Source: a virus
DNA: 64,000 nt
Virus record (IMG/VR): IMGVR_UViG_3300031754_000001
Location: 75,584-139,583 of that record
Reading direction: 5' to 3' (one strand)
Positions 44,801 to 64,000 of this stretch are shown piece by piece. The stretch's first letter is position 1, and the number at the start of each line of letters is the position of its first letter. Position numbers and translations under genes: made by a program. The notes beneath the pieces were generated by a model. The model ran no database searches. It was not told the DNA's origin and saw only the letters and a list, made by a program, of their open reading frames with translations.

Positions 44801-47800
44801 TGGTGTTCGCGAGGGCGGAGATCGCCGGGAAACGCTGCGGTCAGTCCACCCGTTCCGGTAGGCCGTGTGGACAGCCTGGGCAATTCCCTGCGCGCCCGGG
44901 TTCGCGGCGGCGGTCGCCTGCCACACCGGGTCAGAGCCCCCGGTTTCGACAATGGTGGGGATTGCGTTGCCGGGTCCGTAGTAGGCCCATGGCCCGCGCC
45001 CGTCTTCGTCCGGGCCGGCTGTGTCGTAGTGCACGCTGATGATCAGCTGGCCGTCCCGGGCGTAGGCGTACACCTGGATGCCGCCGTTGCCGTCTTCGTC
45101 GCCGGCCAGCACGATGCAGGGCAGCGCCTCGGCGTCATTGTTCCCGGTGGCCGGCTGGTACGGCAGGAACATCGCGTACTGGTTGATCTGCTTGTCGGTC
45201 AGGGTTCGGGCGGGGGCGTGCGCGTCAGTCATGATCGTGGCTCTCCTGTCTGGGATGTTCCGACTGGTCGGAAGGTCAGGGACTTGCGAGCCGGAACCGG
45301 GCCATCAGGCTGGCCGGCACGATCGCGGCTGGCGTCAGGCCTGCCTCGGTTCGGAACCAGATAATCATCCCGGACCCGATGACCTGGGCGATGTCGTAGT
45401 TCTGGCTGAATAGCCAGCTGAGCTGTTCGCCCGGCGGCAGGTCGGCCAGGCCGGGCGGCGGCAGGTCGCTGATCGCGACGGGGTGCCCGGCGGCGTAAAG
45501 CTGCCTGTTCAGTGCCGTGAACTCCTTGTTGGTCATGTCAGGCCCGGTGGCAGGCGTGGCCTTGGCCATTTCCGTGTAGCGGCGTACTGCGCGGGCCAGC
45601 GCGCGGGCCGCCGCGATCTCCTCGGCGGTCGTGCCCTCGATGGCGGCCTGGTCGAATGCGCTGAGTGCGCCGGACAGCGAGCCGGCAGCTGCGCCGTGCA
45701 CGGTCCCGGTGTCGATATCACGGAAGGCCGAGGCCAGCCGTTCAGAGGCGTCCCGGAGTTCGCCTGGGTCCAGGTCGGTGTCCAGGATCAGCGCTGCCTG
45801 ATCGCGCATGTGCGTCCAGGCATCGTCGCGGGTGACGTCGTTCATGATCGTTTCTCCTGATCGTCGGCCTGCACGGCGGTGACGGTGATCCGCCAGCGGA
45901 GCCGGCCCTTGGTTTCGTCCAGCACGGCGTCCCAGTCGGCGGTGATCAGGCCGGCTGCCTCCAGCGCCGTGATCTGGCTTGCGGCGCGGTAGTTGTACGT
46001 GCGTGGTCCTTCAGCGCGTACCCGGTCCAGCATCCGCTGCTGGGCTGGGGTGAGCTGGGTGGTCATGTCAGTCGTCCTTCCCGTCCCAGGCCAGCCAGTC
46101 GGTGCCCGAGGCAATTAGCCCGGACAGCTCACGGCGGCTGATGTTGTCTGCGATCGTGAGCCGGGTGGCAGGCTTTTCGTCTAGCCAGATCTGGCTCCGG
46201 CCGTCTCGCCGCTGCAGGTGGATTACGGTATCCAGGCGGAATTCCTGCGGCAGTTCGCCGTCGCTGGTGTTTACGGGCTGCCATTCCAGCTCGCGGTGGG
46301 TGCGGTGCTGGACAGCCATTGTCAGCCTTCCTCGCAGGTAATGTCCCGGCTCTCCAGGCGATGGAGCATGTTCGCCACCTGGGAGTACGCCTTGATGTTC
46401 TCGGGTCCTATCTGCAGGGCCGGGATCGCGCCCAGCAGGTCAGCCAGCTCGCGGTACCGGAGGACTACCCGGGCTTCGCGGCCGGTGCCGAGACCGGGGC
46501 CGGTGACATCGGTGAGCGTGGCGAACAACTGGAATGCGTGCTGGCCGTCAGGACGGCCGACGATTACCTGCGCCAGGGTTTTCGCGACGACCGGCTGTTT
46601 GCGGGTGCTCATGATGCTGTCTCCTGCCTATGTTCTGACTGGTCGGAAAGTCAGAGACCGGGATGTATCGGGCAGGGCAGCTCGTTCTGGCGCTCTCCCG
46701 GCTGGATGATGATCTCGCTGGGCTCCAGCGTGAGGATGTACTCAGCGAGTCCTCCGACGTGATCAGACGATGCGATGAGGCTGTCATCGCCGTAAGCGCC
46801 CGTGATGCCGTCGCCGCTGAACGCAGACCAGCCCCAGCGGGTGCGGCGGATGACCACGGCGTCCGGGGAGAAGGCGCGATCGGGTCCTGATGTCATGTCA
46901 GCTTCCCAGGTAACGGGTTTGTCGCCGAACCCGCGCGCCAGCTCGGCCTGTTGCGTTTCGGTTAGCTTCACGTGCGGGGAGTGGTGCTGGTATGGCGCTT
47001 TCATGATTGCGAGCCCTCGCGTTCGGTTTGCAGTTCAGTCAGGATGGCGGTGACCAGTTCTTCCGCTTCGGTGTCCGCCGGGGTTTCCGGCCGCTGGAGC
47101 GTGGTGACCCGGCCGGTCCGCCCGTGCTCGTCGTGCGGGTAGTGACTGTGGTTCCAGTCAGGCCGGGTCATGCTGTCCGGGGTCATGTACCGCTCGGGCA
47201 GTGCCAGGAACCACCGGCTGGCCGTGGCGGTCTGCCAGGACCAGATGAGTTCATGCGTCATGCAGATCGCCGCAGTGCGGCCGATTCCGAGCAGCCGGTG
47301 CTCCTCGTCCAGCCGGTCGTGCTGCGCCTGGCAGTTTGCGTGCCAGCGGTCCATCTCAGCCTGGCGCTCGGCGCGGGTCATGCCCTCGGTGATGACCGGC
47401 TCAGCGATCTGGCGGTTCAGTTGCGCCCGCCGGCTTTTCACGGTCATGTGCTCTCGTTACGGACTGTGGCCTGACTGTCTGCCCTGCGCCGCCTGGGCCG
47501 CGCGGAGACGGGTTCCTGGCCGAGCGCCACCCGGCGGAATAGCACCGGGTCGAAGATGTACGGCTGTCGCGAGCCTGAATCCTTGCTGTCCTGGGTGAAC
47601 TCGGCGGTGAACGCGGAGATGAGCCGGTTCAGGGCCGGGTTCAGGCCGTTCGCGGATCGCTCGGCCGCCAGGATCGCGGCGACGGCGCGGAAATGCTGCT
47701 GGGTCCAGCGGCGGCTCTGTCGTGCGGGCATGTCTCAGCCCTCCTGTCCGGGGGTCTTGGTGATGCGCCTGGCCAGTTCGTCCTGGATCTTGCGGGGAGG

Positions 47801-50800
47801 GATGAGCCGGGGTACGCGGTGCAGCAGATCCATGGGCGGGGCGAACTCGCTGCCGGATTCACTCCGGTGCCCGAACCGCATGATGCCGGGTCGCAGATCG
47901 CAGTCGTAGCTGTCATTGTTGCGGAACTGGCCGCGCGTGATCAGGCAGACACCGCCCATCGACCAGACGTGATCACCTTCGGCGATGTCCGCCCAGGTGA
48001 CCAGCTCGAATAGCTCGGGCACGGATGTCCAGGCCGGGCTGTCCCCGCGCGCCTCCAGCTCAGCCCGGCCCGCGTCAGTCAGCCGGTACGCGGCGCTGCC
48101 CGGCACGGGCTCGATCAGCCCGGCGTCTGCCAGGGTCGCGACTTCGGGCATCAGGGCGGTGGCGTCCCAGATTTTCGGCCCGCTGGCGTAGCTGCGGAGC
48201 AGGTCCGTATTCTGTCGTGCGGGCATTTTCTTAGCCCTCCTGTTCCGGGGTCGTGATGGAGGCTGCCCACTCGCGCATCCGGCGCAATTCCCCGGCCGTG
48301 TCCGCGGTGTGCTCGTAGGCTTTCAGGTAGGCGGACCGGACGTCGTGCTCAGCGGACCGGGCGGCAGCCAGCTTGGCTTCCAGCTGGGTGATGCGAGCCT
48401 GGGCGGCGGGCAGTGGTTCCAGGATGGTGACGCAGCTGACGTGCGCGGATTCGCTGCCGTCGTCCAGGCAGAGGAACAGGTCCCATTCCCCGATTGGCTT
48501 ACCGCAGTCGGTGCAGTCGTCCAGGCTCTCGCGGGGCTCGGTGTACGACGTCCGGGTCCATGCGATGTCCTGGAGAGGCTCGGTGCAGGTGCCGTCATCG
48601 TTCCTGGTCAGGATAATCATGAGGGTTTTTCCGATCGGTCGGAGGTTTCCGGGCGGCGGCTGTCCGTGGCGTGGCCGTCCGGGTGCGTGGTGACCGCGAA
48701 GTACCGGCCGTTGCGTAGCCAGCGCATCCGGTAGGCGGTCATTTTCCCGGTTTCGCTCACGGGGAACAGGGCAGGCCGGACGGCCAGCGACTCATCTTCG
48801 CGGTCCAGGATGAACAGCTCGATCTGGTCCCGGGTTTGCCGTATGACGGCGGCCGGGAAAGCGCAGGGCATGGTGGCCTCCTAGATTCCAGTGTATCATG
48901 CTGTATACATATCGCACAACTCCGGGCATGCCCGCTGGAGTATAATCCCAGGTCAGGAGCCGGTAGGTTGTGCCGTTACTATGTGTCGTTCGGCGGAATC
49001 CGCACGGCATCCCAGGTGGTTAGCCAGTCACGCCGGGCCTGGCCGCGCCCGTAGGCGGTCTTCACAGGATGCGTGTCCCGGCGTCCGGCCGGCATCCCGC
49101 GCCAGGCCCGGCGCTGGCTCTTGCGCCAGCACCGGGTCCGCCCGGCGGGCCGCATGTCAGGTCCCTTCCGCGTCAGGGGGCAGTACGGCCACGGCGTCCG
49201 AGAACGTCTCCATCTCGGCGTTGTCACTGTCGCGGATGACGGTGATATGGCGGTAAGCGCAACCGGGGTATGGCGGCTCGATCAGCTGGACAGTGCCTGT
49301 GTACCTGGCACCGTCCCACCAGGCTTCGACGCGGGTGCCAACGGCCAGCGGGCGCTTGTTCATGTCGGCGGGCTGCATGTCAGTACTCCGGTGGGCACGG
49401 GTGCCCGTTCAGGTAGGCCGTCCTGGCTCCCGTGTGGAATGGCGGCTCGCCGGGCGTGGACCCGTAGTAGCCCACGGTGTCGGCCATGTCCAGCCAGTAG
49501 CCCGTGATTCCCTGGGTGCGGTCCGGGTTCTCGGCCAGCCGGTTGCACGTCCAGGCCTTCCCGGTGGCCTTGAAGGTGACGATCCGGCCGTTGCGCCGGT
49601 TCAGCGCGACATCGGTCACCCAGAAGTCTCCTCCGGCCAGCCGGTCGGCGAACTGGCGGGCGTAGGCGTGGCACGGGAACTCGGCGGTGAATTCCCCGCG
49701 GCGCGCGGCGGCGACCTGCCCGGCGGTCGGTATTCCGGTGGTCATGATCGTGCTTCCTGTTCGTGAGATCTTTTGCCAGTTTTGGTAGTTACCTGGCCGG
49801 CGCGAAGGTCCATGACGATCTCCAGCAGTCTCCTGCCGATGACCGTAGATGTCGTTTTGTCCCATTCCAGCAGGCGGCTAGCTAGATACTCACTCGCGCT
49901 CTCGGTGCGCGGCGTACCATGTTCGCCATGCTGGATCTGGTACAGGGCGGAAGCGTCGGACCAGTAATGTTCGGGCATAATCGTGGTCCTTTCAGGTCAT
50001 CCGGGTTTCAGGCGCATCGGTGGTTACGCCAAGGATGTCCGCGACGATCTCGCGGATGCGGTAGAGCGCGTCGTGCTCGGCATCATTGGAGTCACCGCCC
50101 AGCGCCTCGTCCGCTTCGGCTAGCGCGGTGCAGAGCGCGTCCCGGGCGTCGGTCAGCGGCTCGGTGAAGGTCTGGTAGTCCTCCGCGGGTACGCTTTCGT
50201 CGTCGGGGCTGGCGCCTGCGAATGACGCTTTGCCGCGCGGCGTGACGACCGTCAGCTCGTAGGTGAGGCCGGGCGGGTCGTCTATGCCCTCGTCTACGGT
50301 GTTGTCGCGGACGTTGAATTCCATCAACCCCTCGGCGGCGCGGCGCGCGGTGAGGTAGTCAGGTGCTCCGATGTGGAATGTGGCGACAGCCACGATGTCG
50401 AATGTATACTCAGGCATGATCGTGTGTTTCCTGTCTCAGGTGCGGTTGCCGATGGCCAGCAGCGCGCCGCGCAGCGAGTGCGTGACGGTGATGTACCGGC
50501 CCCGGCTGTCATAGGCCTCGTAGGGCTGGGCGGCCTCGTTCCCAGGCATGATCTCGGATGGCTCGCCGCCGGCGTCGGCCCGGTTGTCGGTGATGTAACC
50601 CAGCGGGTGCGTGCTGCCGGCCGTGACGGCGATCCAGTCGGCTTGCACGGGCGCGGTGCTGCCTGGTACGCGGGCCGCGAACTCGGCGCGGGGCATGGCT
50701 TCCATCAGGCCGGCTCGCATGTGCTGGTAAGTGATTGGCATGATCATGGTCCTTTCAGGTGTTCCGGTTGGCCGGAAAGCCTCAGTGCTCGTACGGGTCT

Positions 50801-53800
50801 TCGGCCAGCTGGGGCTTGACGTAATCGATCTCGCGGTCGGTGTCGGGGCTCCAGCCTTCCAGCAGGTCAGGGCGCGCTTCGAGCAGGAGCCTCGCGAGGA
50901 TATGACCTAGCTGGGCGCGGAACATGTCGGCCAGGCCTTCGGTGTCCACGGTGTGCTCCGTGCGGGAGAACGGCTCCTCGCCGTGAACCTGCGAAGTGAC
51001 ATGGTGCCCGAGCAGGGGGTGAGCGGCCAGGGTCCACGGGTCGGTGTAGAGAATGCGCTGGTCCATGATCTCCAGGTACACCCGCGAGTTGCCTTTGTAG
51101 TTGTCGGCCTGCACGACCCGGATCTGGTCCAGGTCTATGGTCCGCTTCATTGGTGCCCTTTCAGATGTTCCGGTCGGTCGGAAGATCAGTACTGCGCCCA
51201 GCGGCGCACGTCCGGGCTGAAACTCTCCGGACCGCCGGCGGCCTCGATTAGCGTGATGACCAGCCGGGCCAGCGACTGGCTGCGCGAGAGGCAGCCCAGC
51301 CGCTCGCCGGGGCTGCTGAACGGGTCGGAGGAGTTGTCCATCCAGATGTCCCGGCTGGACGTGATCCGGTACAGCGCCCGGTCGCGTGCCTGCCGGGTGC
51401 CGGCGATGACCAGCCGGGCGCGGCGCTGGCGCCTGCCGGTGAATTCCAGCCGGCCCCAGTCCTCCTCGTCCGGGTGGTCGGCTGCGTCGATGTCCAGGCC
51501 ATGCTCGACTTCGCCGGCCTGGAACTCAGTCAGGGTCAGGATGATCTCGCCCATGGTCAGGCTCCGTCCGCGATGAACTGCGCCCAGCCGCCGTCGTAGT
51601 GGACCTGGATGCCCGCGCGTACCGCGTCATCGGACAGCTTGGCTACGTCGATGTCCCCGGCCCACTGGCAGTCAGCAATCCAGTCCCGTGCCGCGTTCAG
51701 CAGCCCGGCCTCGCGTGCTTTCCGCTCAGCTTCCTGGTTCCAGGCCAGCCAGCCGGGAAGATTGCGCGTTACGTGTTCGTTCTCGATACGCGGTTCTACG
51801 TGCGGGTAGCCGTGATTTGCTTCCAGCCAGCACTGGATGAGCATCAGGTCGCGGAAGATGTGCCCTTCACGTGAGTTACCGGGTTCTAGAGCATTGCGGT
51901 TGTAATCGGTTTCTTCATCGCGCCAGTTGTAGGCGACGAGACGACCGATGGCTGTGACCAGCGTGCTCGTATCTAGTTCGGTGTTAGTCATGGTCGTTGC
52001 TCCTTGTCGTTTGCGGGCGGGGTCCGGGTCTGCCTGTCCGCGCCGCATTCGGCGCACGCGTAGATGTGCAGGTCCTCGAAGCCGCCGTCCGCGGTGTGGC
52101 GGGTGTCGGTGCCCAGGTAGACCCGGCGGTGCCGGCGCCGGGCCTTGGGCAGGTCGGTCCGCAGCCCGCAGCTCACGGGCACGGGCTGGGGCAGCGGGAA
52201 GATGAATTCGGGCGGCAGGACGGCACCGGGCTCGCCGAGGATGATCGCGCGGAGCCGGGCCGCGCACGTTTCGCAGACGGTGCTCGGGCCGGCTACCCCG
52301 GTCACGGTGACCAGCGCGCCGCATTCGCACTCGCGGGTCCAGGTCTGGATTGTGCCGTGGAATCCGGCCATCGGCTTCTCCTGTCAGTGATCTGGGGGCC
52401 CAGGCCGGCCCTCGCGTTCGCGGGAGCCGGCCTGGCGGGGTATCAGCCGGCCTAGATGTCGCCGTTGGTGTCGCAGTCCTGCCGGGCATAGCCGGCGTCC
52501 TGCCGGAGGACGGCGGTCCGGGCGTGCCGGGCACGGTCGCCGGCCCACAGCCTGATATCCACGCGCAGGTAGGTGTCCGCGTGCCGGGCCAGCCGGGCCA
52601 TCCGCGTGAACTCCCGGCCGGACGGGTGCCGCTCGTATGCGCTGAACGCGCGGCACGTGGCCGTGTCATACCAGCCGGCGTCGTGCGCGGTCACCGCGCT
52701 GGCGTTCGCGGCTGCGGCCGGGAGGACCCCGGTTGCCAGGCCGGCTGCCCCGGTGAGGATGGCGCTGGCCGTCAGGATGCCTAGCGCGGTGCGGAACCGG
52801 CGGGCGATCGCCTGGAAGCGGTCACGGGTCATGGGTGTCTCCTGATCTCGGGTCTTGGTCCGGGTTGCCGTCTGGCCCCCGTGGCACGGCCAGGGTGCGG
52901 GGGTGCGCGCCGCTGGCCGGCCATGACGGGTCAGACGGTACGGGACACGGTGAACTCGCACCGAACCCGGTCGTACCGGATCAGCCAGGACACGCCGTCG
53001 CGCCGGGCCGTCGTGCTGGATCCCAGCGCCGCCGCGTTCATCAGCATGGTCCGGGCGCGGGCGCGGGGAACGCCGTTATCCACCAGCTGGCTGATGGCTG
53101 CGTCGCGGGTTTCGCGCATCCGCTCGCGCGTGGCCATTCCGGACGTGAAGCTGTCCAGTGCCATGAACACGCCGGCCCGGTCAGCCAGGCTGATCATGGC
53201 CAGCGCCCGGTTGTCCTGGTACCGGCCGCCGCTGTAGCTCAGCATCCCGCTCTCGCCCGCGCAGGCGGTCCAGGTGACGGTCATGCCGTTCTCGCCCTGC
53301 GCGGCGACGAACCAGGACGCCAACAGGCCGGGGCTCGCCGGCGCACCGGGCAGCACCGCGAACACGGTGTAGCCGTTGTTCCGGGTCACGCCGGGCACGG
53401 GCGGCGCCATCGTGCGCGCCGCGCGCCCGGCCTCGGCCGCCAGCTCGTCTGCGTCGCCGGCTGGGGATAGCTGGGCTCGCACGGCATCGGCCAGCGCGAC
53501 GAGTGCGCTGTAATGATTCTCGGTCTCGGTGTCGGCTAGCGCGAGCGCTTTCTCAACCGGAGTCCGGTTGCCGGGCTCGCGCTCTGCGTATCGCACGGTC
53601 AGGCCGTAACCACGGGCGTAATATTGCGGGCTGTACTGGTCATCTACCTGGATCAGGCCGTCAAGGCCGGGCTCGGTGACGCGGGTCGCGGCGTAGAAGA
53701 CGGCCGGCTTGCCCAGTGAGTTGGCGATGGTGTCGCCGGGGCGGACTTCGGTGCCGTCTTCGCGGTAGGCCTTCATGGCAGTCATGGGGTTCTCCTCAGA

Positions 53801-54880
53801 TGTCCTGGCTGGCGGGCTGGGCAGGCACGGGCACGGGCAGCGCGAGCGCGTCGCCGATCCTGGCGTGCAGCCGGGTTAGTTCCTCGCGTGTCCACCAGCC
53901 GTTAGCCACGCGGGAGACGTGCACGCGGAACTCGGGGTCTGCTCCGTTGTCTTCGGCGCGCAATTCTCCAGGGGTGACCTGGGTGATCCGGAATGTCTTG
54001 TCCCGGGTGTCGTATCGCATGGGGTTCTCCTCAGATGCCCCTGGACGGGGCTGTGGTGGCCGCTGGCGGCCTGACGGGTGCCGCTGCGGGTTACGGGCAT
54101 GGCTTTTCTTCTGATCGGTCGGAATTTCCGTGGACGGTGAGCGTGAATACGCTGACGTTCGGGCGGATGCCGCGATGCCGGCCGGTGATCATCAGGGCCA
54201 TGCCGTCGATCGTGATGCGCTGGCCGCGTTCCGGGATGGGCTCGAACCCGTGCAGCCAGGTCAGCCGGATGTCATGCGTGCCGGGCCGGCCGATCTGCGC
54301 GGTGACGTACATGCTGCCGTAACTGGTGTGCCTGCGCCGCACGCTGGTTACCGTGCCGGTGACTTCCACGGGTCAGCCACCGCCCCAGGCCAGCCACGCT
54401 TGCGGAGCGGTGTTCTCGGTGATGCGGATGACCTTCGGGGCGGTGCGCAGATCGCGCTCGATCGCGTCCGACCTGGAGCTGTGCGCCTGGCGGACAGCGG
54501 CCTTGGCTGCACGCAGGTTAGGCGCGAGCGCGATGATCATGCCCGCGGACCAGTCTGCCAGCGCGTCTTCCCACACGTACAGCTTGAACGGCTGCGTGAT
54601 CATGGTTGTCTCCTCAGATCTCCTCTTCGGCCAGGGCGCACACATCGGCGCGGTACTGGCCGTAGATGGTCCGCGCGGCATGCTCGGCCGCGTTCTGGGT
54701 GGCGTATGGCGTGGTCTCGGCCAGGTAGCCCGGGATCCGGGTCACCAGGTCTACGCCCGGATGGCCGTCCGCGCGGCGGATGCGGAACCAGCCGCGCACC
54801 AGCCGTACCTCGGCTACGGGCTGGCCGTTCTCGCCGGTAACCCGGTTGTCCAGGCCAGCCCGCGTCGTCTGGGTTGTCAC
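41856..54880 (-). other. array of about 30 small leftward hypothetical genes (early/host-takeover-type region)
   Basis: Tightly packed 60-280 aa ORFs with similar RBS/start contexts, e.g. 43046-43486, 43949-44395, 44397-44759, 44756-45232, 45276-45845, 46322-46612, 46651-47004, 47001-47447, 47735-48226, 48231-48620, 49380-49745, 49992-50417, 50782-51150, 51186-51554, 51557-51991, 52931-53785, 54614-54880. Confidence 0.7.
42128..42811 (-). CDS. protein with an N-terminal Phd/YefM-like segment
   Basis: RTAVVSGGRTVAAIVP.GDL..L. Confidence 0.5.
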   Translation of the reverse strand: MTDRIRTLNADISDSEIRLEELEGALDLASDQDQRTAVVSGGRTVAAIVPAGDLTRLQALDAAVLSGQPGTSGRPEPDVISREIRSDGMQSPVSPDITVVNASSANLRAELDYRNQPDVYTALGMILEGLNSPDHIVTRIIQAQAALRALRDQIRQGPGAGPSKAGILARFAPPAPTSRDPAPELTAMTRRLAELIRTLGITCDAAGMSQRSPAEIARWLRYGDDAP

Positions 54881-56685
54881 GATGACGCGCTCTCGTGCTC
54901 ATCTAGGGCATGCGAGGTGATCCCCGCCAGGTAGCGGTCGGCCGCCTTCTGGGATACCAGTCCGGCAGCGATTTCGCGTAGTGACGCTCCTGTCGTGTCT
55001 GGTCTTGTGTTCAGCTCGCGGCACAGCCCGCACAGGTCGCTCTCGCCGGCCAGGTGCGCCGCGATGGCGTGGATGGCGCCCGGGACGCAGCGCTCGCAGC
55101 CGGGGCAGTCCGATTCGGGGTGGATGTCCGTGCTGCTGACGGGGTGCGGCCAGCGCGCGGCGCAGCGCAGGCAGATGCGCGCCCAGGCCTGGCTAGGCTG
55201 GTGGCCGCTGACGTACAGGCCGTCCGCGCTCGTGCGGGTCCCCGCGTGCCAGCCCAGGTCGGCGTCCGGGAAGACAGCCGGCGGGCTGGCCGCGGATCTC
55301 GTGTTCTCCTCCCGCCATTCCGCGATGATCTGCTGAGTCCTGCTGACAGCGCCTGCCGGCTCGTGATTCCGGGATTTCCGGGGCTTAGTCCGACTGGTCG
55401 GAACCTCGGTCCGGTGCCCGGACCAGGGTGGCGCGATCGACGGGGAGCGTCGCGCCGGGATCAGCGGGCCAGGTCCGTCTTTGGCCATGGCCTCCTGATA
55501 GGCGTCCTCCCGCGCGGCGGCGTCCAGGGCGCAGGTGCACGCATCCAGGTCCTTGCCGCAGTCGGTGCATCCGGCGTCCCAGGGCAGCTTCACGGGCTGG
55601 CTGTCCGGGTCATTGTCGTAAGCGCATTCGCACCCGGCCACGTGGCGCGAGCAATTCGCGCACAGGACGTCATCGTAGAGTGATTTTCCCGGGCGCAGCG
55701 TGCAGTATTCGCCCCAGGTCATCTGCCGCCAGGCCTGGCTGGAAGTTGCCGGCGTGATCGCCAGGATCCTGGAGGCCTCGCCGCGGATGTGATCCGGCAC
55801 ATAGCACATGCAGCCCTTGTTCTCGATCTGGCCGCAGTCCTGGCACGCTCCGCACTCCAGGCAGTAGCCGGTGACCGAATCGACGGATTCTTCCGCGAAG
55901 CACACGTCGCAGTCGCCGTAGTAGTCGTCGTACCGGCTGTAGCCGGAGTATCGCTCCGGTTCGTGCGGCATGGCCGTCCCGGCGTTCTGCTCGTGGAACC
56001 GCAGGTATTTCGCCGTCATCGCGAACGTGTTGCCGAGGTAGGCGTAACCGCGTTCGGAGTGGTAGTCCCCCTGGTACCCGACGCCCCAGTTGAAGGCCTT
56101 GACGCCCAGGTGCTCCAGGTAGGCGATGTCGGAGTAGCTGCCGTGGCCCATGACCGCGCCGCTCGCCTCCACGGCCCGCCGGCTGGCCCGGTCCTCGTAC
56201 TGGTACATCACGACGTCCGTGCCGCCCCGGTCGAACTCGATCACCCAGTCGTAGTCCTTGCCCGGCTTGAAGTGCTCGGCTGTTGACTGGCCGGATTCCT
56301 CGCCCACGGTGAGCAGCCAGTCGCAGGTGACGCCTAGTTCCGGCAGCAGCTTGAGGATGACGTACGCGCCCAGCCGGTCGTCCAGGGCTCCCGAGACGAC
56401 GAGCGGCCCGCGCTCCGTGGCGCTGAAGCGCGGCGTGCGGCGGTCCCTGCGCACTACGGTGTCCAGGTGCGCGACCGCCAGCACGCTCGACCCGTTGTCG
56501 CGGAAGTGGTAGTAATCTTCCGGCCGATCGGAAGATCTCCAGGACGACCGCTGTTCGACGCGGACGGTCTGCATCCCGAAGGCGCGGCCGAACTTGCGCT
56601 CTGGCAGCGTGAGGATGCGCGCCAGCGTGTCCTGGTTGTACGCGCGCCGGACCTGGCGGGTGAATGAGTTCTTACCTGACATCAT
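54877..56685 (-). CDS. M28-like zinc peptidase domain + multiple CxxC zinc ribbons
   Basis: AHLDTV, GALDDRLG, GEESG, EFDR.G, GSYSDI, N.GVGY...HSE; Cys-rich C-terminal half. Confidence 0.8.
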   Translation of the reverse strand: MMSGKNSFTRQVRRAYNQDTLARILTLPERKFGRAFGMQTVRVEQRSSWRSSDRPEDYYHFRDNGSSVLAVAHLDTVVRRDRRTPRFSATERGPLVVSGALDDRLGAYVILKLLPELGVTCDWLLTVGEESGQSTAEHFKPGKDYDWVIEFDRGGTDVVMYQYEDRASRRAVEASGAVMGHGSYSDIAYLEHLGVKAFNWGVGYQGDYHSERGYAYLGNTFAMTAKYLRFHEQNAGTAMPHEPERYSGYSRYDDYYGDCDVCFAEESVDSVTGYCLECGACQDCGQIENKGCMCYVPDHIRGEASRILAITPATSSQAWRQMTWGEYCTLRPGKSLYDDVLCANCSRHVAGCECAYDNDPDSQPVKLPWDAGCTDCGKDLDACTCALDAAAREDAYQEAMAKDGPGPLIPARRSPSIAPPWSGHRTEVPTSRTKPRKSRNHEPAGAVSRTQQIIAEWREENTRSAASPPAVFPDADLGWHAGTRTSADGLYVSGHQPSQAWARICLRCAARWPHPVSSTDIHPESDCPGCERCVPGAIHAIAAHLAGESDLCGLCRELNTRPDTTGASLREIAAGLVSQKAADRYLAGITSHALDEHESASS

Positions 56686-56862
56686 TTCTCTTTTCCAGCA
56701 ATGCGGTGAGTGCTTCATGCAGTGCCTGGTCGCTATCGGTGATGTTGTTCTGACCGGCCGGAACTTTGCCTTGCTGGCGCTGGCGTTCCAGGGCCACGGC
56801 CAGCAGCCCGCGCACCGTGTAGCCAGCCGCGAAGCTGATCAGGGCCGTGATGAGGACGGTGG

Positions 56863-58551
56863 TCAGCATGAGATCAGCTCTCTTTCGAACAGGTTTGAGT
56901 GCTGGCTGATGTCCAGGTCCAGGCTCCCGTCCGTGTATTGCTCCGCGATGTCCTCGGGCGCCACGAGGTAGCCGCCGGCGTTGACGTACATCGGCTCGGC
57001 GCTGAAGCCGATTTTCCGGTAGGTCCAGCCCGCCATGTGCGCGAGGATCCGGGGCGCGGCGTAGCCGCTCAGGTCGCCGTACCCGTTGAACACCACGAAG
57101 GCGTCCGGTGTCATGGTGTCGAACGTCGGGACCAGCTTCCCGCGCTCGTCCCGTCGCAGCGGCAGCACCCAGGCCCGGCCGGACACGTTGCCGTAGCCGT
57201 CGAATGACCGCAGCCCGAGGCCGCCGTTGGTTTTCAGCGCGCAGCGGCTCTCGCCGTAGCTGCCCCACCAGCACGAGTCCTCGTGATAGAACTCCGAGGC
57301 GCCCATGTTCAGGTCCCGGGTGACCTCGATGGCGACGCTGACCTGCGTGCTGTGGTCTCGCGCGATGACGCCGACCTGCGACATGACATCTTGCGTGACC
57401 TTGATCTGGTGATCCTGGTAGGCGTGGCGGCTGAGCCGCCGGGTGAAGTTCCCGGTCCTGGTTTGCCACTGGTCGCCCAGCTTGTCCAGGTCGTAGGCCA
57501 GGTTCGTGTACTGGTGGAGGTACTCGCCGTTTTCGCGATGGCGCTGGCACAGCAGGTAATTGCGGATAGCGGCCAGGCCCTCGGCGGAAATGGTGCCGGC
57601 CGGCAGCGTGACCGTGATCCGCGTGTCGTTCGCCAGCGGCTCGCAGCCGTCGTTGCGGACCGCGAACTTCAGCTGCGGTGACGTGCAGCAGCCGTAGCCG
57701 TCATTGTGGCTGTGGTCGGATGAGTTCTCGTCGTGGTACCAGCCCTCGCACTCCTTGCAGTACGAGTAGCAGTTATCGCGGCAGCTATCGCAGATGTCTG
57801 ACCCGCTCAGCGTTTCCGTCAGGTCGCCGGCCGGGTACCGCTCCTCGCAGCTGGCGCAGGTCGCCCAGTCGTCCCAGCACGATCCGCAGATGCTGACCGA
57901 GCCGTCCTGGGCTGAGGACATGTTCCCGTCCCACTCGGGCTCGTTGCAGTTGTCGCAGAACGCGAGGTTGTCGATTTCGTCAGGGTCGCGGACGATCTCC
58001 CGCAGGTGCTGCCGGAACTCTGCCTGGCGGGTGCTGGTCGACCAGGTGCTGAACGTGAACCCGGTCCACAGCTCGCTCAGGTCCAGGTCGCTGGCGGTCG
58101 CGTCCCGGTCGTAGCCCTCGCGGTTGTAGCCGTCCTTGTCGTAGCCGTAGCGGTCGTAACCGTCTGCGCCGAGGCCGTCCTCGTCGTAGCCGTCCGCGTC
58201 GTAGCCCCGGGCATTGAAGCCGTTCCGGTCGTAGCCGTCCGCGTCGTAGCCGCGCGAGTCGTAGCCATCTTCCGACTGGTCGGACAATGACGGCACCGGC
58301 TGGCCCGGGACCGGGGGGTCGTCGCTGCGGATGTTGGGGCAGCCGTCCGGCGTGTGGAAGTCGCCGGCGTTGGCGTCCAGGATGTGATAGCACCGGATAA
58401 GGCCGTCTTCGCCGTCATGTTCGACCGGGATGATGAACTGCCCGGCCAGGCCGAGGTTCGTCTGGCCGGCCCGGTGCCATACGGTGCACGGCAGCCCGTC
58501 GTGCGAGATGTGAAATTCGGTTGCCGCGAACGCCTGCTCGTAAGTGATCAT
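56863..58551 (-). CDS. GYD-repeat / CxxC-repeat protein with an uncharacterised C-terminal domain
   Basis: About 11 GYDxx pentapeptides, five CxxC pairs, then SCWWG...GRAWV...FNGYG. Confidence 0.8.
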   Translation of the reverse strand: MITYEQAFAATEFHISHDGLPCTVWHRAGQTNLGLAGQFIIPVEHDGEDGLIRCYHILDANAGDFHTPDGCPNIRSDDPPVPGQPVPSLSDQSEDGYDSRGYDADGYDRNGFNARGYDADGYDEDGLGADGYDRYGYDKDGYNREGYDRDATASDLDLSELWTGFTFSTWSTSTRQAEFRQHLREIVRDPDEIDNLAFCDNCNEPEWDGNMSSAQDGSVSICGSCWDDWATCASCEERYPAGDLTETLSGSDICDSCRDNCYSYCKECEGWYHDENSSDHSHNDGYGCCTSPQLKFAVRNDGCEPLANDTRITVTLPAGTISAEGLAAIRNYLLCQRHRENGEYLHQYTNLAYDLDKLGDQWQTRTGNFTRRLSRHAYQDHQIKVTQDVMSQVGVIARDHSTQVSVAIEVTRDLNMGASEFYHEDSCWWGSYGESRCALKTNGGLGLRSFDGYGNVSGRAWVLPLRRDERGKLVPTFDTMTPDAFVVFNGYGDLSGYAAPRILAHMAGWTYRKIGFSAEPMYVNAGGYLVAPEDIAEQYTDGSLDLDISQHSNLFERELISC

Positions 58552-58906
58552 GGCATGTCTCCTGGTCCTGGGTCTGTGATCGTCGGGTCTGTGGTCGTGG
58601 GTCTGGGGTCTGGTTATTCCGACTGATCGGAATGGCGAGGGCTAAGTTTTTCCGGAACCGGGCTAGGGTTGCCCTGTCTAGTTCGGCTGCTAGCTCAGCC
58701 CGGCTGCGCAGACCTGGTGTGGTCGGCCAGTGCTGCCAGCCGTAGCGTACGTACAGGCGGTTACGCCAGAAGTTCAGCCAGCTTGCGCGGGTCGGCCAGG
58801 CGGATAGGCGCCAGCGTGCACGGTACATCTGTGGCTTGCTCATGATTGGTCCTCCCATGGGTGGTTACGGGCCGGGTAATTCCGGTCGGTCGGAAAATCA
58901 GGCCGG

Positions 58907-59329
58907 CTAGTCGGTGTGCATGGGCGCCTGGTCGCGGCGTTGCCGCCTGGTCAGCCGCGCGGGGTGCTGGTCACTGCCGAACGCGAACCTGATTTCGGCG
59001 AGGTAGGCCAGCGGGCCGAGATTGTCATAGGTCCTGGCTGCGCGGCGCGCGAGGATGATCATGCGCATGTCGCAGATCAGGAACAGCCCGGCTGAGACGG
59101 AGCCGGCCAGCATGGCGGGCATCGGCAGGAGGCTAGTTGTCCAGAGCCCGGTAAAGAGCCCGATGTACGCGGCCTGGAGCCCGGCCAGGGTTAGCCAGTC
59201 ACGGACGGCCCGGTGGATCGTGCCGTGCAGGCTGGCTGGCTTGCGGGCATTCAGGCGCTTTGATGCCATGATGGATCCGGCAATCATGACGGCATATAGC
59301 AGGTAAGGGATCTGGCGGGCGAGGTTCAT
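58907..59329 (-). CDS. membrane protein
   Basis: 3 hydrophobic segments; GAGGA RBS. Confidence 0.6.
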   Translation of the reverse strand: MNLARQIPYLLYAVMIAGSIMASKRLNARKPASLHGTIHRAVRDWLTLAGLQAAYIGLFTGLWTTSLLPMPAMLAGSVSAGLFLICDMRMIILARRAARTYDNLGPLAYLAEIRFAFGSDQHPARLTRRQRRDQAPMHTD

Positions 59330-59827
59330 GATCGTTTGTCCTCTGGTCTGGGGTCTGGCTGGCTGGCCTGGTCGGTATCTCAACGAGGACGCATTCCCGG
59401 CAGGTAACCATTGAAAGCCTGTGCGTGACGGACGTCCAGAAACGCTTTCTCTTCCCGCACGCTGTCAGCTCGGTGCTTTCCTCCATGTAATGCGTCATCC
59501 CCGGTCGCAGTCGGTGACGGGCGGCAGCTGCATGTCCCGCCGGAGGTCATTAAGTGCCCCGGTGAGCGCTTGCAAGACGTTGACGTGGGGATTGTCGCTG
59601 GTCACGCGGACGGGCCGGCGTTCAACGACCAGCCCGTAATCGGTGGTGACGCTAACCGTGTACGTGGTCACGTGAACCACTTCCGGGCGATCGCCGTGCT
59701 GACGGTCGGGGCGTCGGCAGGTGCCGGATCCGGGCGCGGCCGGCGGGTGACCTGTATCTGAATTTGCTTGCTCATGATCATGTTCTCCAGTTCTGTGATC
59801 GGTGATCGTTGCCCGGGTATCTGCCAC

Positions 59828-59869
59828 GGTGCGCGGAAGATTCCGGTTAGCGGGAACCTTCCGCGCACC
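59828..59869. other. 12-bp-arm inverted repeat enclosing a 16-bp palindrome variant
   Basis: GGTGCGCGGAAG-A-TTCCGGTTAGCGGGAA-C-CTTCCGCGCACC. Confidence 0.7.
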
Positions 59870-60372
59870 ATGGGTGGCTGGCCGGGGTGACCCGCCGTTA
59901 TCCGCCGGCGGCAGCGTAGCGCTTGGTTCTCAGTTGCTGCATAAAGGCCAGGTCATGTGCGCGTCTCCGTTCTGAAGTCAGGTTCCGGTCGGTCGGAAGA
60001 TCAGTCGTCGGCGTCGGACAGGACGTCCGTCATGCCGTGACCGCGCAGTGTCGCCGCGAAATCGCGGGCATCCTGCTTGTGCTCGAATGTGCGTATCTCC
60101 GGTTCGGGGGACGGGGAGAACCGGCTGGAGTAGATCACCGTGAACATGGCTAGTTCTGGTTCCGGCGGTTGGCCTGCGCGGCCAGCTCTGCGCGGGTAAG
60201 CGGCCCGCGATAGCCGTTACGGGCAGCATCGCGGCGGCGCGCGGCCAGGTAGCGGTGTTCCGCGTCGGCCTGGCTGATCCGGCGCATGGTGGCGAGGCGG
60301 GCAATGGCAGTTGGCGTGCTGGTCATGATCGTGTCTCCGGTTCTGTGATCGGTTATCGGTTCGGGAGGTCAG

Positions 60373-60437
60373 TGGCAAACGCCGGAATCGAACCGGCATC
60401 GGGCTATCATCCGCCGGCTGCCATGCCGGGCACTGCC
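60373..60437 (-). ncRNA. degenerate tRNA-like element
   Basis: Perfect T-arm GCCGG-TTCGATT-CCGGC, partial acceptor stem and D-like hairpin; no CCA. Confidence 0.35.
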
Positions 60438-61034
60438 AGGGGGCCGCGCGCCTTCAGCTGGTAAGGCGCGCGGCAGGTAATGTTCCGGTTGGTCGGAAAT
60501 TGCCAGGAAGCGGACCCGTCATCCGGTACTGTGACGGGTGATCCGGCCATCCGACCACTTGACCGTGATCCAGCCATTACGGCGCGCGATAATCGTGTAG
60601 TTCATGATCAGTGCTCCCTGGTCTGAGGTCTGGTGATTGTTCCGGCTAGCGGTGGATGGCCCGGTTACCCGTGTTGCCACGGGCCGGATTGTCCCTTAGC
60701 CCGGCATTGGCGCGGTTCGAACCATGACGCCGATCGGCCCGTTATCCCTTGTGACTGCCAGCTAGTTTCAGCTGGCCGGCCTATCGCTGCCGCGCGTACG
60801 TGAGCTGTATGGCCGGGAGCCTGCCTTTCTGCCGTTCCCGTCATGGCGTCAGATTCCGGGCACCCTAGCGCGACCACACGGGAACTTCGCGCTTGCCTGG
60901 CTTGCCAGCCGTTGCCCTACGTCGCAGGGAGTCTCTAGCATGCTGGCCGTACTGGTGATCACGTGCCGCTTCGCGCGGTACATCCGGACAGACTGTCGCG
61001 TGATCCTGGCTAGGTTCCGGTCGGCCGGAAGGTC

Positions 61035-61676
61035 TCAGACAATCGCCATGGTGGGTACGGTGGACCAGCCCTGGATGACCTGGGTAACGGTCCGCCAGCG
61101 TGCCTGGCCTTCGCGTCGCTGTTCCATGCGGGTAATGCGCTTGCGCGTACCGTGACCTTCCATAGTCACGCGGACGGTCCAGCGTATGCCGGTTTCGTGC
61201 TGAGTTACGGTATGGGTCCACACTTGGATAGTCATGGTCATATCCCCGATTCCGATCGGTCGGAAGGTTGACGGTCACTGTTCGGTGGTCTGGTGGCCGG
61301 AATCGTCCGACCGGTCGGAAGTTGGCACGCGGTTAGGGTGAGCGGTGACGCGTCACGCACGCCGGCCTGTTTCGGTGATGCGGCCAGGATCGGCCGGCAT
61401 GACGGTGGCGGCGCGATGTGTCCGGATAGCGGCAGGTTTGACGAACGTCCGCATGTCCGCTAGCCCGTCGCTGGGCGCGTATGCGGTATCCCGCCACCAG
61501 TCCGGAAACGGTGCGCTGTCAGAAAGTCCGGCGAGGTCACATGCCGCACCGGGCCGGCGGCTACGGCGTGCGCGGCTACGGCGCGGCCGGACGGGTTCCG
61601 GGGTGACTTCTACCGTTACTGTCTCCCACTCCCCGGCCAGCGGATTCCAGTGCTGGCATGTCTCGGTCATGATCAT
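61035..61676 (-). other. two small hypothetical genes (61035-61241, 61353-61676)
   Basis: RBS-preceded ORFs next to 16-bp sites. Confidence 0.55.
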
Positions 61677-61696
61677 GTGCGCATGTCTCCTATTGG

Positions 61697-61730
61697 GCCG
61701 GCGCGCCCTTACTCAGCAGGGCGCGCCGGC
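61697..61730 (-). terminator. 13-bp hairpin downstream of the HTH gene
   Basis: GCCGGCGCGCCCT/AGGGCGCGCCGGC. Confidence 0.45.
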
Positions 61731-61760
61731 GGGTGACGTTCTGGCTGGCCGGGCGGGAAA

Positions 61761-62480
61761 TCAGGCAGTCACGCGGGTACGGCTACGGCGCGGTGACGGC
61801 ATGGGGGTGATGCCGGCCTTCTTGCATAGGGGGCAGTCCGTGCGAGGTTCGGAAGTGGCGTGTGACGGGACACCCTTAACGGCGTGGAGGGTAGCGGGCT
61901 TGGCGGCGCGGTCTGCCTTGATTTTCGCGACCTTGGCGCGTGCTTTGGCTAGCTCGCCTTCAAGGCGCATAACCTCGGCTTCAGCTAGCGCTAGCTCATC
62001 CGCTGGCTCACCGGTCTCGTCGCTGGCTTCGTCGCTGGCTTCGTCGCTGGTCTCGTCGCCAGCCGGCGCGCGGCGCGACTTGACCTCTGCCCTAGCGTCG
62101 GCGACCGACCACGTACGTGACGCGATTAGCTCATTGCGGTCATCTTCCCGGCTGAACACCTGATGGACGGTCCATGAATTGGAGTCCGACCGGTCGGAAG
62201 GTGCGTACGCGCCGGCCACGAAACGAAGATCCAGCACGGTGCGGTAGGCGACATTGATGTCATCGGAGAATTTCTGGACAGTCTTCTTGCCGTATGTGGT
62301 TTCGACAGTCAGTGCTGCGTCTCCGATTATCCAGTTGGCTTTGCCCTGACTGGCAGCAGCAGACTTTCCGGCGCGAACGGCAGCGTTGTACTTGACCATG
62401 CTGACTTTCTTGGGAGCGGTCTTGGGCGCGGTCTTGGGCGCGGTCTTGGGCGCGGTCTTGGGAGCGGTCTTGACAGACAT
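61761..62480 (-). CDS. LmbU/DUF6192-like HTH DNA-binding protein with N-terminal KTAP repeats
   Basis: W.IGD.AL...YG...FSDDI.V.Y.T....R.VA.....R....SW.VH...R.....WSV..AR; (KTAP)x5; AAGGAGA RBS. Confidence 0.65.
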   Translation of the reverse strand: MSVKTAPKTAPKTAPKTAPKTAPKKVSMVKYNAAVRAGKSAAASQGKANWIIGDAALTVETTYGKKTVQKFSDDINVAYRTVLDLRFVAGAYAPSDRSDSNSWTVHQVFSREDDRNELIASRTWSVADARAEVKSRRAPAGDETSDEASDEASDETGEPADELALAEAEVMRLEGELAKARAKVAKIKADRAAKPATLHAVKGVPSHATSEPRTDCPLCKKAGITPMPSPRRSRTRVTA

Positions 62481-63345
62481 GATGTCTCCTTCTGGTGATG
62501 ATTCTGGTTTGGCTGGGTCGGGTTAGTGCGGAAGATGGCAAGCGGACCGGTCGTGGGCCTGGCCGGCTAGGTGCAAGGCGTTCGCGGTGTTCTGGTGCGT
62601 GGCGTGCCAGTAAGCGGTGAGGTAGGCGTAGATTCCGGAGATTGCGCGGTTGTCCATGGTCTGGTTACCTCACTTCGATGTTGCTGCCACGGCATTCCGG
62701 GCAGTGGATCCACGCGCCGGCCACGATTGACTGAGCCTTGCACTGTGATTCATGGCAGGTAATGACAGACTGGATAACCGTCATGGTGGCTCCTTCTGGT
62801 AGACCGGTTTGGCCGTTCGGCCACGGCCGGCCATGGTGCGCGGTATGCGGGTAAGTGACCAGCCAGGCAAGCACTGAAGTTGTCCCGGTCACGGAATCGT
62901 CATGATGCGCGCCATGGCCCGCCATGGTGGAACGAACATGAATATCAGTTGCCGCATCCGGTAGTTGCTAGATACCGGCCGGCATGCGAGCTAGGTTCGC
63001 GATGCGTTGCTAGCTCTAAGGCAGACTCACCTTAAAAGTTGCCACGTGGTTCGGATCGTAGGGTCGGCCGACCGTGAATCGCTGTAACGAAACCTGCTGT
63101 CGGATCTTGGCAGTCTGTGAACCGTGCTCGCCTACCCGCCTACGTGGCGTGTCCTCAATTCTGGAGTTATCCGGCCAACTCGGAGGTCCCGTCACCTGGG
63201 AGCGGTTGGCTCGGTACTGATATTTGATTGAGCCCTAACAGTCGCACACTGTCCTATGGAGTAGCAAGTGACAATCCTCCGACCGATCGGTAAATGATCT
63301 TGAAAGCATGGTCAACATGCCTGTGACCTGCGATAATAGAATAAA

Positions 63346-63361
63346 TGTGATCTCCGTCACA
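63346..63361. promoter_or_regulatory. CRP/GlxR-type site
   Basis: AAA-TGTGA-TCTCCG-TCACA-TT, a perfect TGTGA-N6-TCACA. Confidence 0.65.
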
Positions 63362-63873
63362 TTAGGGCTACATGGTGTGCTACATAAGGTATTCGACGTG
63401 TCACCTCATGACTGAGGGCATGGCCGGGGCGCGGTCGGCGCGGTGCTGGCCATGGATCACGGCAGGATAGGCGTCACTTGCGCTTAGGCAAGTATTGTTA
63501 CCGGGCGGTAATCATGCTGTGACCTGCAATGTTCTACTGGTTCGAACGTTAGGTTAGCTAAAGGCTAGTTATTTCGAATTTTCCAAGATCCTTTACGGGG
63601 CAGAGTTTGTCCTGACAAACGACCTGGCAAAACGTCGCGCGGGGTTGACTGGAGTGCCCGGAACATGCCCTCTCACCAGCCATGATGCCCGCAGGGACGA
63701 TTTAAGCGTGCCGGCGCATAGCGGTATGGGTCATTCGAACAAACCCGGGAGATTTGATTTGAGGGCTCCCGTTCGAACACCCGTCACGTACTTGTTAGAA
63801 CGGCTAATCGTTAAAGGCCAGCACACAGGGTGATGTCCGTTATGTCTGGTTTGGCTGGCTGTTCCGCTGGCCG

Positions 63874-63887
63874 CGAACGGTTGTTCG
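63874..63887. promoter_or_regulatory. LexA SOS-box-like site
   Basis: CGAAC-GGTT-GTTCG. Confidence 0.5.
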
Positions 63888-63902
63888 CTAGGCGCACATG
63901 CC

Positions 63903-64000
63903 GGCCTGGTGGCTCGGCCTGGTGGCTCGGCCTGGTGGCTCGGCCTGGTGGCTCGGCCTGGTGGCTCGGCCTGGTGGCTCGGCCTGGTGGCTCGGCCTGG
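63903..64000. repeat. 13-bp tandem repeat GGCCTGGTGGCTC (7.5 copies, runs off the window)
   Basis: Direct reading; copies identical, no spacers. Confidence 0.95.

Follow-up and report, generated by a model that had tools for sequence, protein, structure and literature searches.

A ParB-type helix-turn-helix protein encoded at the head of a phage genome arm is a candidate reader of a 16-bp palindrome array

The DNA analysed here (the window) is a stretch of 64,000 nucleotides at the end of a linear virus record of 139,583 bp in IMG/VR (IMGVR_UViG_3300031754_000001, here G000; completeness estimate 66%). Our subject is a gene near its end, at 61761..62480 on the minus strand, together with a 16-bp palindrome that recurs along the leftward genome arm headed by this gene. 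The gene product, a protein of 239 residues with a helix-turn-helix (HTH) core, probably reads the 16-bp sites. An arm-specific array, the recurrence of gene and array in related phages, a correspondence between recognition helix and half-site, and a predicted homodimer together lend circumstantial support to this candidate reader, a role that had been proposed for the gene in an earlier reading of the sequence (the original prediction). We infer both the binding of these sites by the protein and the effect that it would have on the arm.

The unit of the array is TTCCG-N6-CGGAA with A/T-rich flanks, and its abundance is far beyond chance. With at most two mismatches allowed, a 14-mer version is seen at 20 places in the window, where 0.83 would be expected and none of 100 shuffles gave more than 4; all 21 copies of the degenerate TCYGRYYRRYCRGA in the 139,583-bp record fall at window positions 33550-62185. 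The array and its member inside the open reading frame (ORF) of the gene are:

42584..63292, no strand: palindromic-site array of the leftward arm, about 20 sites (14-mer scan)
62184..62199, no strand: 16-bp array site within the ORF, over codons P-S-D-R-S-D (site scan)

The 14-mers start at 42585, 45259, 46634, 48630, 50763, 51169, 54110, 55389, 56519, 56749, 58271, 58618, 58881, 59984, 60484, 61016, 61251, 61306, 62185 and 63278, and the one inside the focal ORF is a perfect TCCGACCGGTCGGA (62185-62198). Counted from the arm head outward, there are 9, 5, 3, 2 and 1 sites per 5 kb. The earlier claim that the gene lies near the arm head, where site density is highest, is thus borne out. Moreover, in G001, a complete relative of 210,383 bp with direct terminal repeats that is syntenic with the window, the homologue at 141.3 kb adjoins the gene divergence point at about 140 kb, so that the label 'head of the arm' is correct. 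Protein identity between G001 and G000 is about 70-80% for structural and replication genes and about 40-60% for arm genes.

Site positions also follow the gene boundaries. Thirteen of the 20 arm sites lie wholly outside crude minus-strand ORFs, a number that chance placement would put at 3.9 and that did not exceed 10 in any of 2000 random trials; seven of these 13 start 3-12 nt past the upstream stop codon. Many of the gaps in G000 measure about 35-45 nt, with 9-30 nt from the end of the site to the next start codon.

Seven related loci, all found through the protein, were compared with the window. A homologue stands at the upstream end of the array in all seven, or in eight of eight with the window counted; a further locus, L019, a weak match confined to the coiled coil (E 8e-4) and without an array, was left out of all counts. 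The sites at these loci, scored in G001 with a position weight matrix (PWM), are:

G001: 24 of 25 PWM hits at 140.4-171.9 kb, homologue at 141.3 kb
G002/L003: 24 TCCCA-N4-TGGGA sites (reversed-pattern control 0), 19 of them at 2.5-34.3 kb
L017: 17 sites in 10.4 kb, with a site in nearly every gap
L020: 15 sites where 0.38 are expected, of which 14 fall in the 10 kb downstream of the gene and 1 in the 9.9 kb upstream of it
L015, L016 and L018: 5, 1 and 5 sites in short flanks, the L016 site just upstream of the gene

In G002/L003 the array starts 147 bp before the gene and is densest just after it. An equivalent of the intragenic site is present in L015 and L018 (peptide SDRSE) and absent from L017 and L020. 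When a pattern independent of the locus was used ([TC]TCC-N8-GGA[AG]), 14, 16, 15, 5 and 4 sites were counted in the five loci tested, for which resampled sequence gave means of 0.6, 0.5, 1.0, 0.8 and 0.2; the enrichment is 6- to 30-fold in each. Furthermore, of the ORFs of the G000 arm, the focal one alone is matched by tblastn in every one of six related sequences searched.

The half-site appears to change, from TCCG to TCCC, together with the type of the recognition helix. Thus, the helix AY[KR]T (G000, L015-L018, L020) goes with G at half-site position 4 (TTCCG), in 49/54, 10/10, 32/32 and 12/12 half-sites, and the helix xxx[ST]VRN goes with C at this position in 14/14 half-sites of L003 (TCCCA). 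G001, where the helix is likewise xxx[ST]VRN, has mixed half-sites (17 with C and 31 with G), and 15 of its 24 sites are hybrid.

How the sites vary favours double-stranded protein-binding sites composed of two half-sites about one helical turn apart. Across 98 sites there are 588 outer position pairs, of which 503 are complementary; the 85 deviations comprise 23 of the G-U type (sense strand), 29 of the A-C type and 33 others, with no bias to preserving an RNA stem. In addition, the hybrid sites of G001 would place a C-C mismatch within the stem, and the stem sequence TTCCG is itself conserved between phages, beyond mere pairing. It is on these three grounds that we favour double-stranded DNA (dsDNA) as the target.

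A palindromic target would be well served by a symmetric dimer, and such a dimer is predicted. For two copies of residues 28-239 the dimer prediction gave a score of 0.74, the best of three controls scoring 0.00; in the benchmark this mark was reached by 20 of 30 solved one-chain pairs and by 1 of 23 solved single chains, counts that hold only roughly for our run with its custom alignment of 27 rows. The runs share at least 77% of their contacts, the partner has a predicted local distance difference test score (pLDDT) of at least 76, and the interface is predicted to be symmetric: helix 30-59 and a portion of the HTH region take part in it, as does the coiled coil, with heptad-like contacts over 162-191. 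The prediction supports self-association of the protein.

The gene itself contains every element that had been listed for it originally, namely the ORF, five KTAP repeats, a helical core, an acidic linker, a coiled coil, an H...CPLC site, a basic tail and the intragenic site, as seen from the sequence, from Tandem Repeats Finder and from the structure model. Its features, other than the array site given above, are:

61761..62480, minus strand: focal gene, 239 aa, ParB/LmbU-type HTH with coiled coil and HHCC motif (ORF, translation)
62486..62490, minus strand: Shine-Dalgarno sequence AGGAG, 5 nt before the ATG (upstream sequence)
62408..62472, minus strand: 12-bp tandem repeat, 5.4 copies, encoding the (KTAP)5 basic N-terminal tail (Tandem Repeats Finder)
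62061..62399, minus strand: core, residues 28-140, modelled as helix 28-58, a ParB-type HTH (helices 67-75 and 79-91) and three more helices (model)
62017..62059, minus strand: 12-bp tandem repeat, 3.6 copies, encoding the acidic SDEA/SDET linker (Tandem Repeats Finder)
61902..61997, minus strand: coiled-coil helix, residues 162-193 (predicted structure)
61824..61886, minus strand: H199-x7-H207-x8-C216-x2-C219, a putative zinc site (sequence)
61764..61799, minus strand: basic C-terminal tail PSPRRSRTRVTA (sequence)

The GC content by codon position is 0.62/0.55/0.71, a third-position bias weaker than that of most window genes. The protein starts MSV(KTAP)x5KK, and its residues 1-27 hold seven K+R and no D+E; conversely, residues 141-165 of the linker hold 11 D+E and no K+R, with pLDDT below 50 at residues 147-157.

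Modelling with AlphaFold2 on 105 of the 152 family proteins gave a mean pLDDT of 85.4 and values mostly above 90 at residues 40-140. The fold of the core in this model (residues ~46-141) is that of an HTH DNA-binding domain of the ParB/Noc/KorB type. A VIA-align scan of 48,161 chains, independent of Foldseek, was led by ParB-parS (Z 8.1), Spo0J (Z 7.5; root-mean-square deviation (rmsd) 2.4 over 82 residues) and KorB, the latter as 8qa8_A (Z 7.0) and as the KorB-operator complex 1r71_A (Z 6.5). Second-look alignment gave as best matches ParB 6t1f_B (Z 9.3, rmsd 2.9, 89 aligned) and Noc-NBS 7ol9_A (Z 9.1), where by the tool's own caution Z values of 8-9 are moderate and helical models can give values below ~13 by chance. 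The first 20 PDB entries of this second look are without exception DNA-binding domains of ParB, Noc, Spo0J, KorB, VirB or SopB (Z 9.3-4.5, residues 46-141), and the entry ranked after them is unrelated, at Z 3.0. Comparison with the ParB HTH, which had been suggested as a check on the fold, therefore returns a ParB-type match. Nearly invariant in the family are W50, G53, D54, A56, Y63 and R86, the last at the end of the recognition helix. A sequence search of the PDB with the family profile returned coiled-coil or designed proteins only.

By sequence, the core belongs to a broad set of proteins. Using phmmer, 465 cluster representatives were found at E<=1e-3, 117 at E<=1e-10 and 24 at E<=1e-30, most of them matching residues ~28-142 only. 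When 98 relatives were scanned against Pfam, DUF6192 was above the cut-off in 3 and weak in 6, and DUF1016_N was weak in 3; the DUF6192-bearing relatives match the focal core at a phmmer E of about 1e-10. An NCBIfam scan of 26 homologues found LmbU_fam_TF below threshold in 16, with E from 2.6e-3 to 7.6e-13 and 17.8-48.8 bits, the cut-off of this family (NF038070) being 125 bits and the gathering threshold of DUF6192 (PF19691) 27 bits. Neither NF038070 nor PF19691 is matched by the window protein at E<=1. An ESM Atlas structure search with residues 33-142 gave, as a lead only, a LmbU-family cluster at TM 0.77 and a DUF6192 cluster at TM 0.78, and the BFVD matches are uncharacterised phage proteins and DUF3102 proteins. 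The HTH core is thus, on sequence comparison, remotely homologous to LmbU and DUF6192 proteins and a member of neither family, since the window protein lies under every Pfam, NCBIfam and PHROG threshold. Of the LmbU/DUF6192-like HTH originally proposed, then, the remote relationship stands and family membership does not. In the literature searched, DUF6192 has no description, and DUF3102 is mentioned in passing only, in unrelated papers.

Among the 98 relatives scanned, the core is joined to DUF5131 (3), Dam (1), the DNA polymerase III beta clamp (1), GP88 (1) and, weakly, SprT-like domains (2). This variety of fusion partners suggests that the HTH core is a mobile, general DNA-targeting module. 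The fusion proteins, from both phages and bacteria, include P0080, P0082, P0120, P0125, P0140 and P0151 (DUF5131, beta clamp, Dam methylase, GP88), and the ESM Atlas holds additional core fusions to MT-A70 and to a 5'-3' exonuclease.

The part of the protein beyond the core is less widely shared. Its C-terminal half, made up of acidic linker, coiled coil, HHCC motif and basic tail, is by comparison of homologues specific to the phage subfamily, the H-H-C-x2-C motif being carried by 23 of the 27 close homologues and, across the full set of 152 proteins, by 29. The conserved basic element of the family is the C-terminal PxPRRSRxR tail, in which P228, P230, R231, R234 and R236 are invariant across five close homologues. 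The N-terminal tail, by contrast, varies: it is (KTAP)5 in G000, TSKPN repeats in G001 and KPSNA repeats in L020, and in L015-L018 the N-terminus is short and non-basic, with arrays nonetheless present. As judged from these sequences, the KTAP tail is a variable low-complexity expansion and not a conserved family feature. The original prediction had seen in it a histone-like compaction tail, a part that finds no support in a segment that is variable and is missing in several close homologues. The KTAP repeat is histone-H1-like by composition, and the homologue P0011 weakly resembles the histone H1-like HC2 family in composition, at an E of 0.0033 that does not reach the cut-off. Beyond composition, a 'phage chromatin' or compaction role of the tail finds no support and is speculation, given how the N-terminus varies among homologues.

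We propose the following mechanism. The gene product would be a sequence-specific, dsDNA-binding homodimer, each subunit having a ParB/Noc/KorB-type HTH without a CTPase domain. The subunits would be joined by the long N-terminal helix and the C-terminal coiled coil, and the paired HTH domains would contact both TTCCG half-sites of the 16-bp palindromes. The gene would be among the first transcribed, from the conserved promoter region heading an arm of ~50 small genes, and its product would settle on the 5' leader site, on the one within the ORF of the gene and on those in most of the arm gene gaps. Such occupancy would lead to a multi-site block or silencing of arm transcription, presumably with the outcome of a self-limiting shut-off of early genes as brought about by stoperator repressors, or by KorB through its operators. 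Extra contacts, either non-specific ones with DNA or contacts with partners, may come from the basic tails and the HHCC motif. This full model, of a dimeric multi-operator repressor or roadblock of the arm, stands in our judgement evenly between right and wrong.

Several observations weigh against the reading of the protein as a ParB-type reader of the array. The window protein had no hit in direct scans of Pfam, PHROGs and NCBIfam; Foldseek found no PDB match at E<=0.001 (top rows SopB, Spo0J and ParB); and the Z values of the fold match are subject to the caution given above. As all seven loci were found through the protein, arrays without the gene would be undetectable via these loci. The loci are from related phages, of two or three lineages, and so both the co-occurrence and the match of helix and half-site are possibly inherited. 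The match is also imperfect, in that L020 combines the first helix type with a different inner site (GGGCGCCC) and a single protein in G001 would have to serve both half-site types. Lastly, longer inverted repeats in L017 and a covarying stem in G001, both described below, make RNA-level or promoter roles possible. A motif-first scan of viral contigs with GTTCCGRYCGRYCGGAAC returned 13 contigs with one site each, with no arrays and no homologue within ±2 kb, and hence gene-less arrays were neither found nor excluded.

The main variant of our model keeps the same dimer at the same sites and reverses the sign, so that the protein would activate or sustain transcription as a per-gene activator or an anti-pausing factor. 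LmbU, a characterised protein distantly related to the focal one, regulates positively and uses its HTH for binding, according to the part of the report available (PMC6510168), and each G001 site precedes a conserved element that resembles the surroundings of the arm-head -10 and could be a non-canonical promoter. However, the G000 gaps leave no promoter room downstream of the site, and promoter-like sites in the scanned region (62400-64000) occur at the arm head only; we thus consider activation unlikely. Alternatively, the focal protein might bind DNA and yet leave the array to a host regulator or a different phage protein, the place of the focal gene at the arm head being conserved synteny. 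Indeed, the loci all belong to one phage clade (70-80% amino acid identity in the structural genes of G000 and G001), in which co-occurrence is heritable, and other arm-head ORFs are partly conserved, 61353-61676 in 4/6 subjects and 60519-60680 in 3/6. Set against this, the focal ORF is the one found in 6/6, no Pfam family was found in any of the 51 other arm ORFs scanned, and the site type shifts along with the focal helix type, which a conserved host factor does not explain. On balance such a separate reader is quite unlikely.

A ParB-like structural role, in segregation, bridging, compaction or DNA marking (as a centromere, 'phage chromatin' or a packaging or injection signal), would suit the ParB/Noc-fold DNA-binding domain, the number and spread of the 16-bp sites, which recall Noc and KorB, and the Lys/Pro-rich tails, along with the weak HC2 match of P0011. 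It is at odds with the precise placement of sites at gene boundaries and with the lack of the N-terminal tail in the array-bearing L015-L018. In addition, no match was found to ParB_N (PF02195; E<=0.001) in G000, G001 and G002, nor to the ParA-type ATPase families PF13614 (AAA_31) and PF01656 (CbiA) in G000, G002 and the complete G001, and G000-G002 gave neither a tyrosine integrase nor a recombinase of the resolvase type; in the window protein itself, a low-complexity tail is all that precedes the core. We hold a structural role to be very unlikely, and a partition system in particular was judged improbable, there being no ParA and no ParB_N. Because even the complete relative lacks the ParA-type ATPase, ParB_N, tyrosine integrase and resolvase, both partition and classical lysogenic immunity are unlikely. 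Least probable of all is that the palindromes act in RNA as intercistronic hairpins, serving stability, processing or translational coupling, with a focal protein that is unrelated or binds RNA. Seven of the 13 intergenic sites closely follow a stop codon, sites lie near the next ribosome-binding site, and some cap longer stems, as such hairpins might. Yet it is the TTCCG sequence, and not pairing alone, that is conserved, the deviations have no wobble bias (23 vs 29 vs 33), 15 of 24 G001 sites would have the C-C mismatch, and Rfam gave no match above threshold, its one sub-threshold hit being a chance match to a miRNA family at the site pair 61253-61317.

A more far-reaching version of our model is doubtful, though it deserves to be stated. 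In it, a CTPase-less ParB-fold protein would nucleate at palindromes marking nearly all gene boundaries of a 25-30 kb early arm, coat the arm by means of coiled coil, basic tails and zinc motif, and silence or insulate it as a whole. With specificity co-evolving with the sites (TCCG to TCCC), this would amount to a site-programmed viral 'chromatin'.

Several known systems invite comparison. Plasmid RK2 carries 12 OB operators for KorB. The phage protein resembles KorB in that both have a ParB-type HTH and both are dimers (here predicted) for a short palindrome present in multiple copies on one replicon and at many operons. In the sections available of two reports, KorB is a ParB-family global repressor on RK2 (PMC11790492, PMC13768133). 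KorB itself, however, has an N-terminal CTPase domain and acts as a sliding clamp with KorA and with its partner IncC (ParA), whereas the phage has neither ParB_N nor ParA. Moreover, the phage protein is predicted to dimerise via the coiled coil and the N-terminal helix and has the extra HHCC motif, and the phage sites occupy nearly every gap of one arm. Stoperators are, in the accessible portion of one account, more than 20 phage sites in promoters and short intergenic spaces, proposed to stop both initiation and elongation (PMC9283540). The likeness to the stoperator repressors of Cluster A mycobacteriophages (L5 gp71, TipsytheTRex) lies in the ~20 sites found here, 13/20 of them intergenic and one in the arm leader. 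Compared with gp71 by described features, the systems differ: stoperators are asymmetric 13-mers bound in an orientation-dependent manner by a two-domain monomer in temperate phages, while the phage here has 16-bp palindromes, a predicted dimer, a ParB-type fold and no integrase found.

ParB-parS and Noc-NBS are the best structure matches of the core, and they share with the phage system 16-bp palindromes and, for Noc, many dispersed sites; that Noc reads 16-bp NBS sites is taken from the part consulted of one paper (PMC8429893). Unlike them, the phage protein has no CTPase domain, membrane-targeting helix or ParA partner, and the phage sites are tied to arm gene boundaries, not to an origin or a chromosome. 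The LmbU and DUF6192 proteins of Actinomycetota are alike in the remotely homologous HTH core. LmbU is described, in the text available of its report, as a homodimerising protein whose HTH binds DNA with a key arginine (PMC6510168). In cells LmbU activates a biosynthetic gene cluster, whereas the focal protein is a phage protein with an array. Arrays of this kind in actinophages are not described in the literature searched. By analogy, the most economical model would be a known logic, multi-operator control of a replicon arm as by stoperators and KorB, realised on a different protein architecture.

If this is true, stoperator repressors and KorB would be joined by a third, structurally different means of controlling a genome arm through many sites, and it would be based on a CTPase-less ParB-type domain with a coiled coil in large uncultured soil phages of ~68% G+C. 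It would also give a first functional handle on the widespread LmbU/DUF6192/DUF3102 HTH superfamily. Specificity switching could be studied on the naturally occurring combinations of helix and half-site (G vs C at position 4), and in high-GC hosts the 16-bp operator with its reader could be put to use as a part, either an orthogonal roadblock or an insulator.

The arm starts from a region that is conserved between phages, in the window at:

63150..63400, minus strand: conserved non-coding arm head with a palindrome, a promoter-like element and the first array site (three phages aligned)

This stretch aligns with G001 (L011:380-620) and with L017:290-520. It contains a promoter-like GTGACG-16-TATTAT at 63360..63333, the -35 of which is overlapped by a perfect TGTGA-N6-TCACA palindrome that we take to be CRP/GlxR-like. 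Following the promoter-like element are CAGGTCA, CATGTTGA(C/T)CATG and then the first array site (63274-63295); one array site thus lies within the conserved leader, downstream of the promoter-like element. Past this site is a further conserved stretch, ATTGTCACTTG..CCATAGGAC..GTGTGCGAC..CTCAATCAAAT. A sigma-70-type scan of 62400-64000 gave promoter-like sites at the arm head only. A reading of the array sites themselves as sigma-70-type or ECF-type promoters was rejected, the G000 gaps being too short.

Extra elements accompany the sites in two relatives. In the gaps of G001 at 143.5-164.2 kb (L011, L012) the site is followed by a repeat, ..GGAACGT-ccgcggga-GCTGACC-tccccgcgc-TGATGATGCCAGGTCAC..AGGAG, in which the stem around GCTGACC covaries, and the sequence GATGAT-GC-CAGGTCAC in these gaps resembles TATTAT-CG-CAGGTCAC of the arm head. 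This G001 gap element may, from its sequence, be a non-canonical promoter or an RNA element. In L017 (3700-9600) longer inverted repeats (gtgcacgTTCCGG....CCGGAAcgtgcac) have several of the sites at their tips and would form stems of 14-16 bp.

As to the wider surroundings, the window has a G+C content of ~68% and includes a PrimPol-DUF5906-PolA fusion, an SNF2 helicase and numerous ORFs without a family. Among the cultured phages of INPHARED there is no match, either by megablast of 61000-63500 or by tblastn with the focal protein, P0008 and P0139. The stretch occurs solely in the soil metagenome that is probably its source, and the listing names no RNA data set containing it. At 63902-64000 a 13-bp tandem repeat (CGGCCTGGTGGCT; 7.6 copies, 100% identity) reaches the contig end and probably accounts for the assembly stopping there. 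Two small, conserved proteins without a family are encoded beside the focal gene on the minus strand at the arm head: at 62665-62925 one of 86 residues with two CxxC-like pairs and a match in G001, and at 61353-61676 an Arg-rich one of 107 residues that matches G001, L015, L017 and L018. Farther away, the protein encoded at 14842-15729 (minus strand; 57% identity in G001) combines HTH_31 with an RNA polymerase alpha C-terminal domain (E 1.6e-10), and may be a mimic or a recruiter of the host RNA polymerase alpha subunit. The polymerase fusion, encoded at 28501-33288 on the plus strand, is a protein of 1595 residues composed of PrimPol, DUF5906 and a family A DNA polymerase, and its G001 counterpart is 78% identical.

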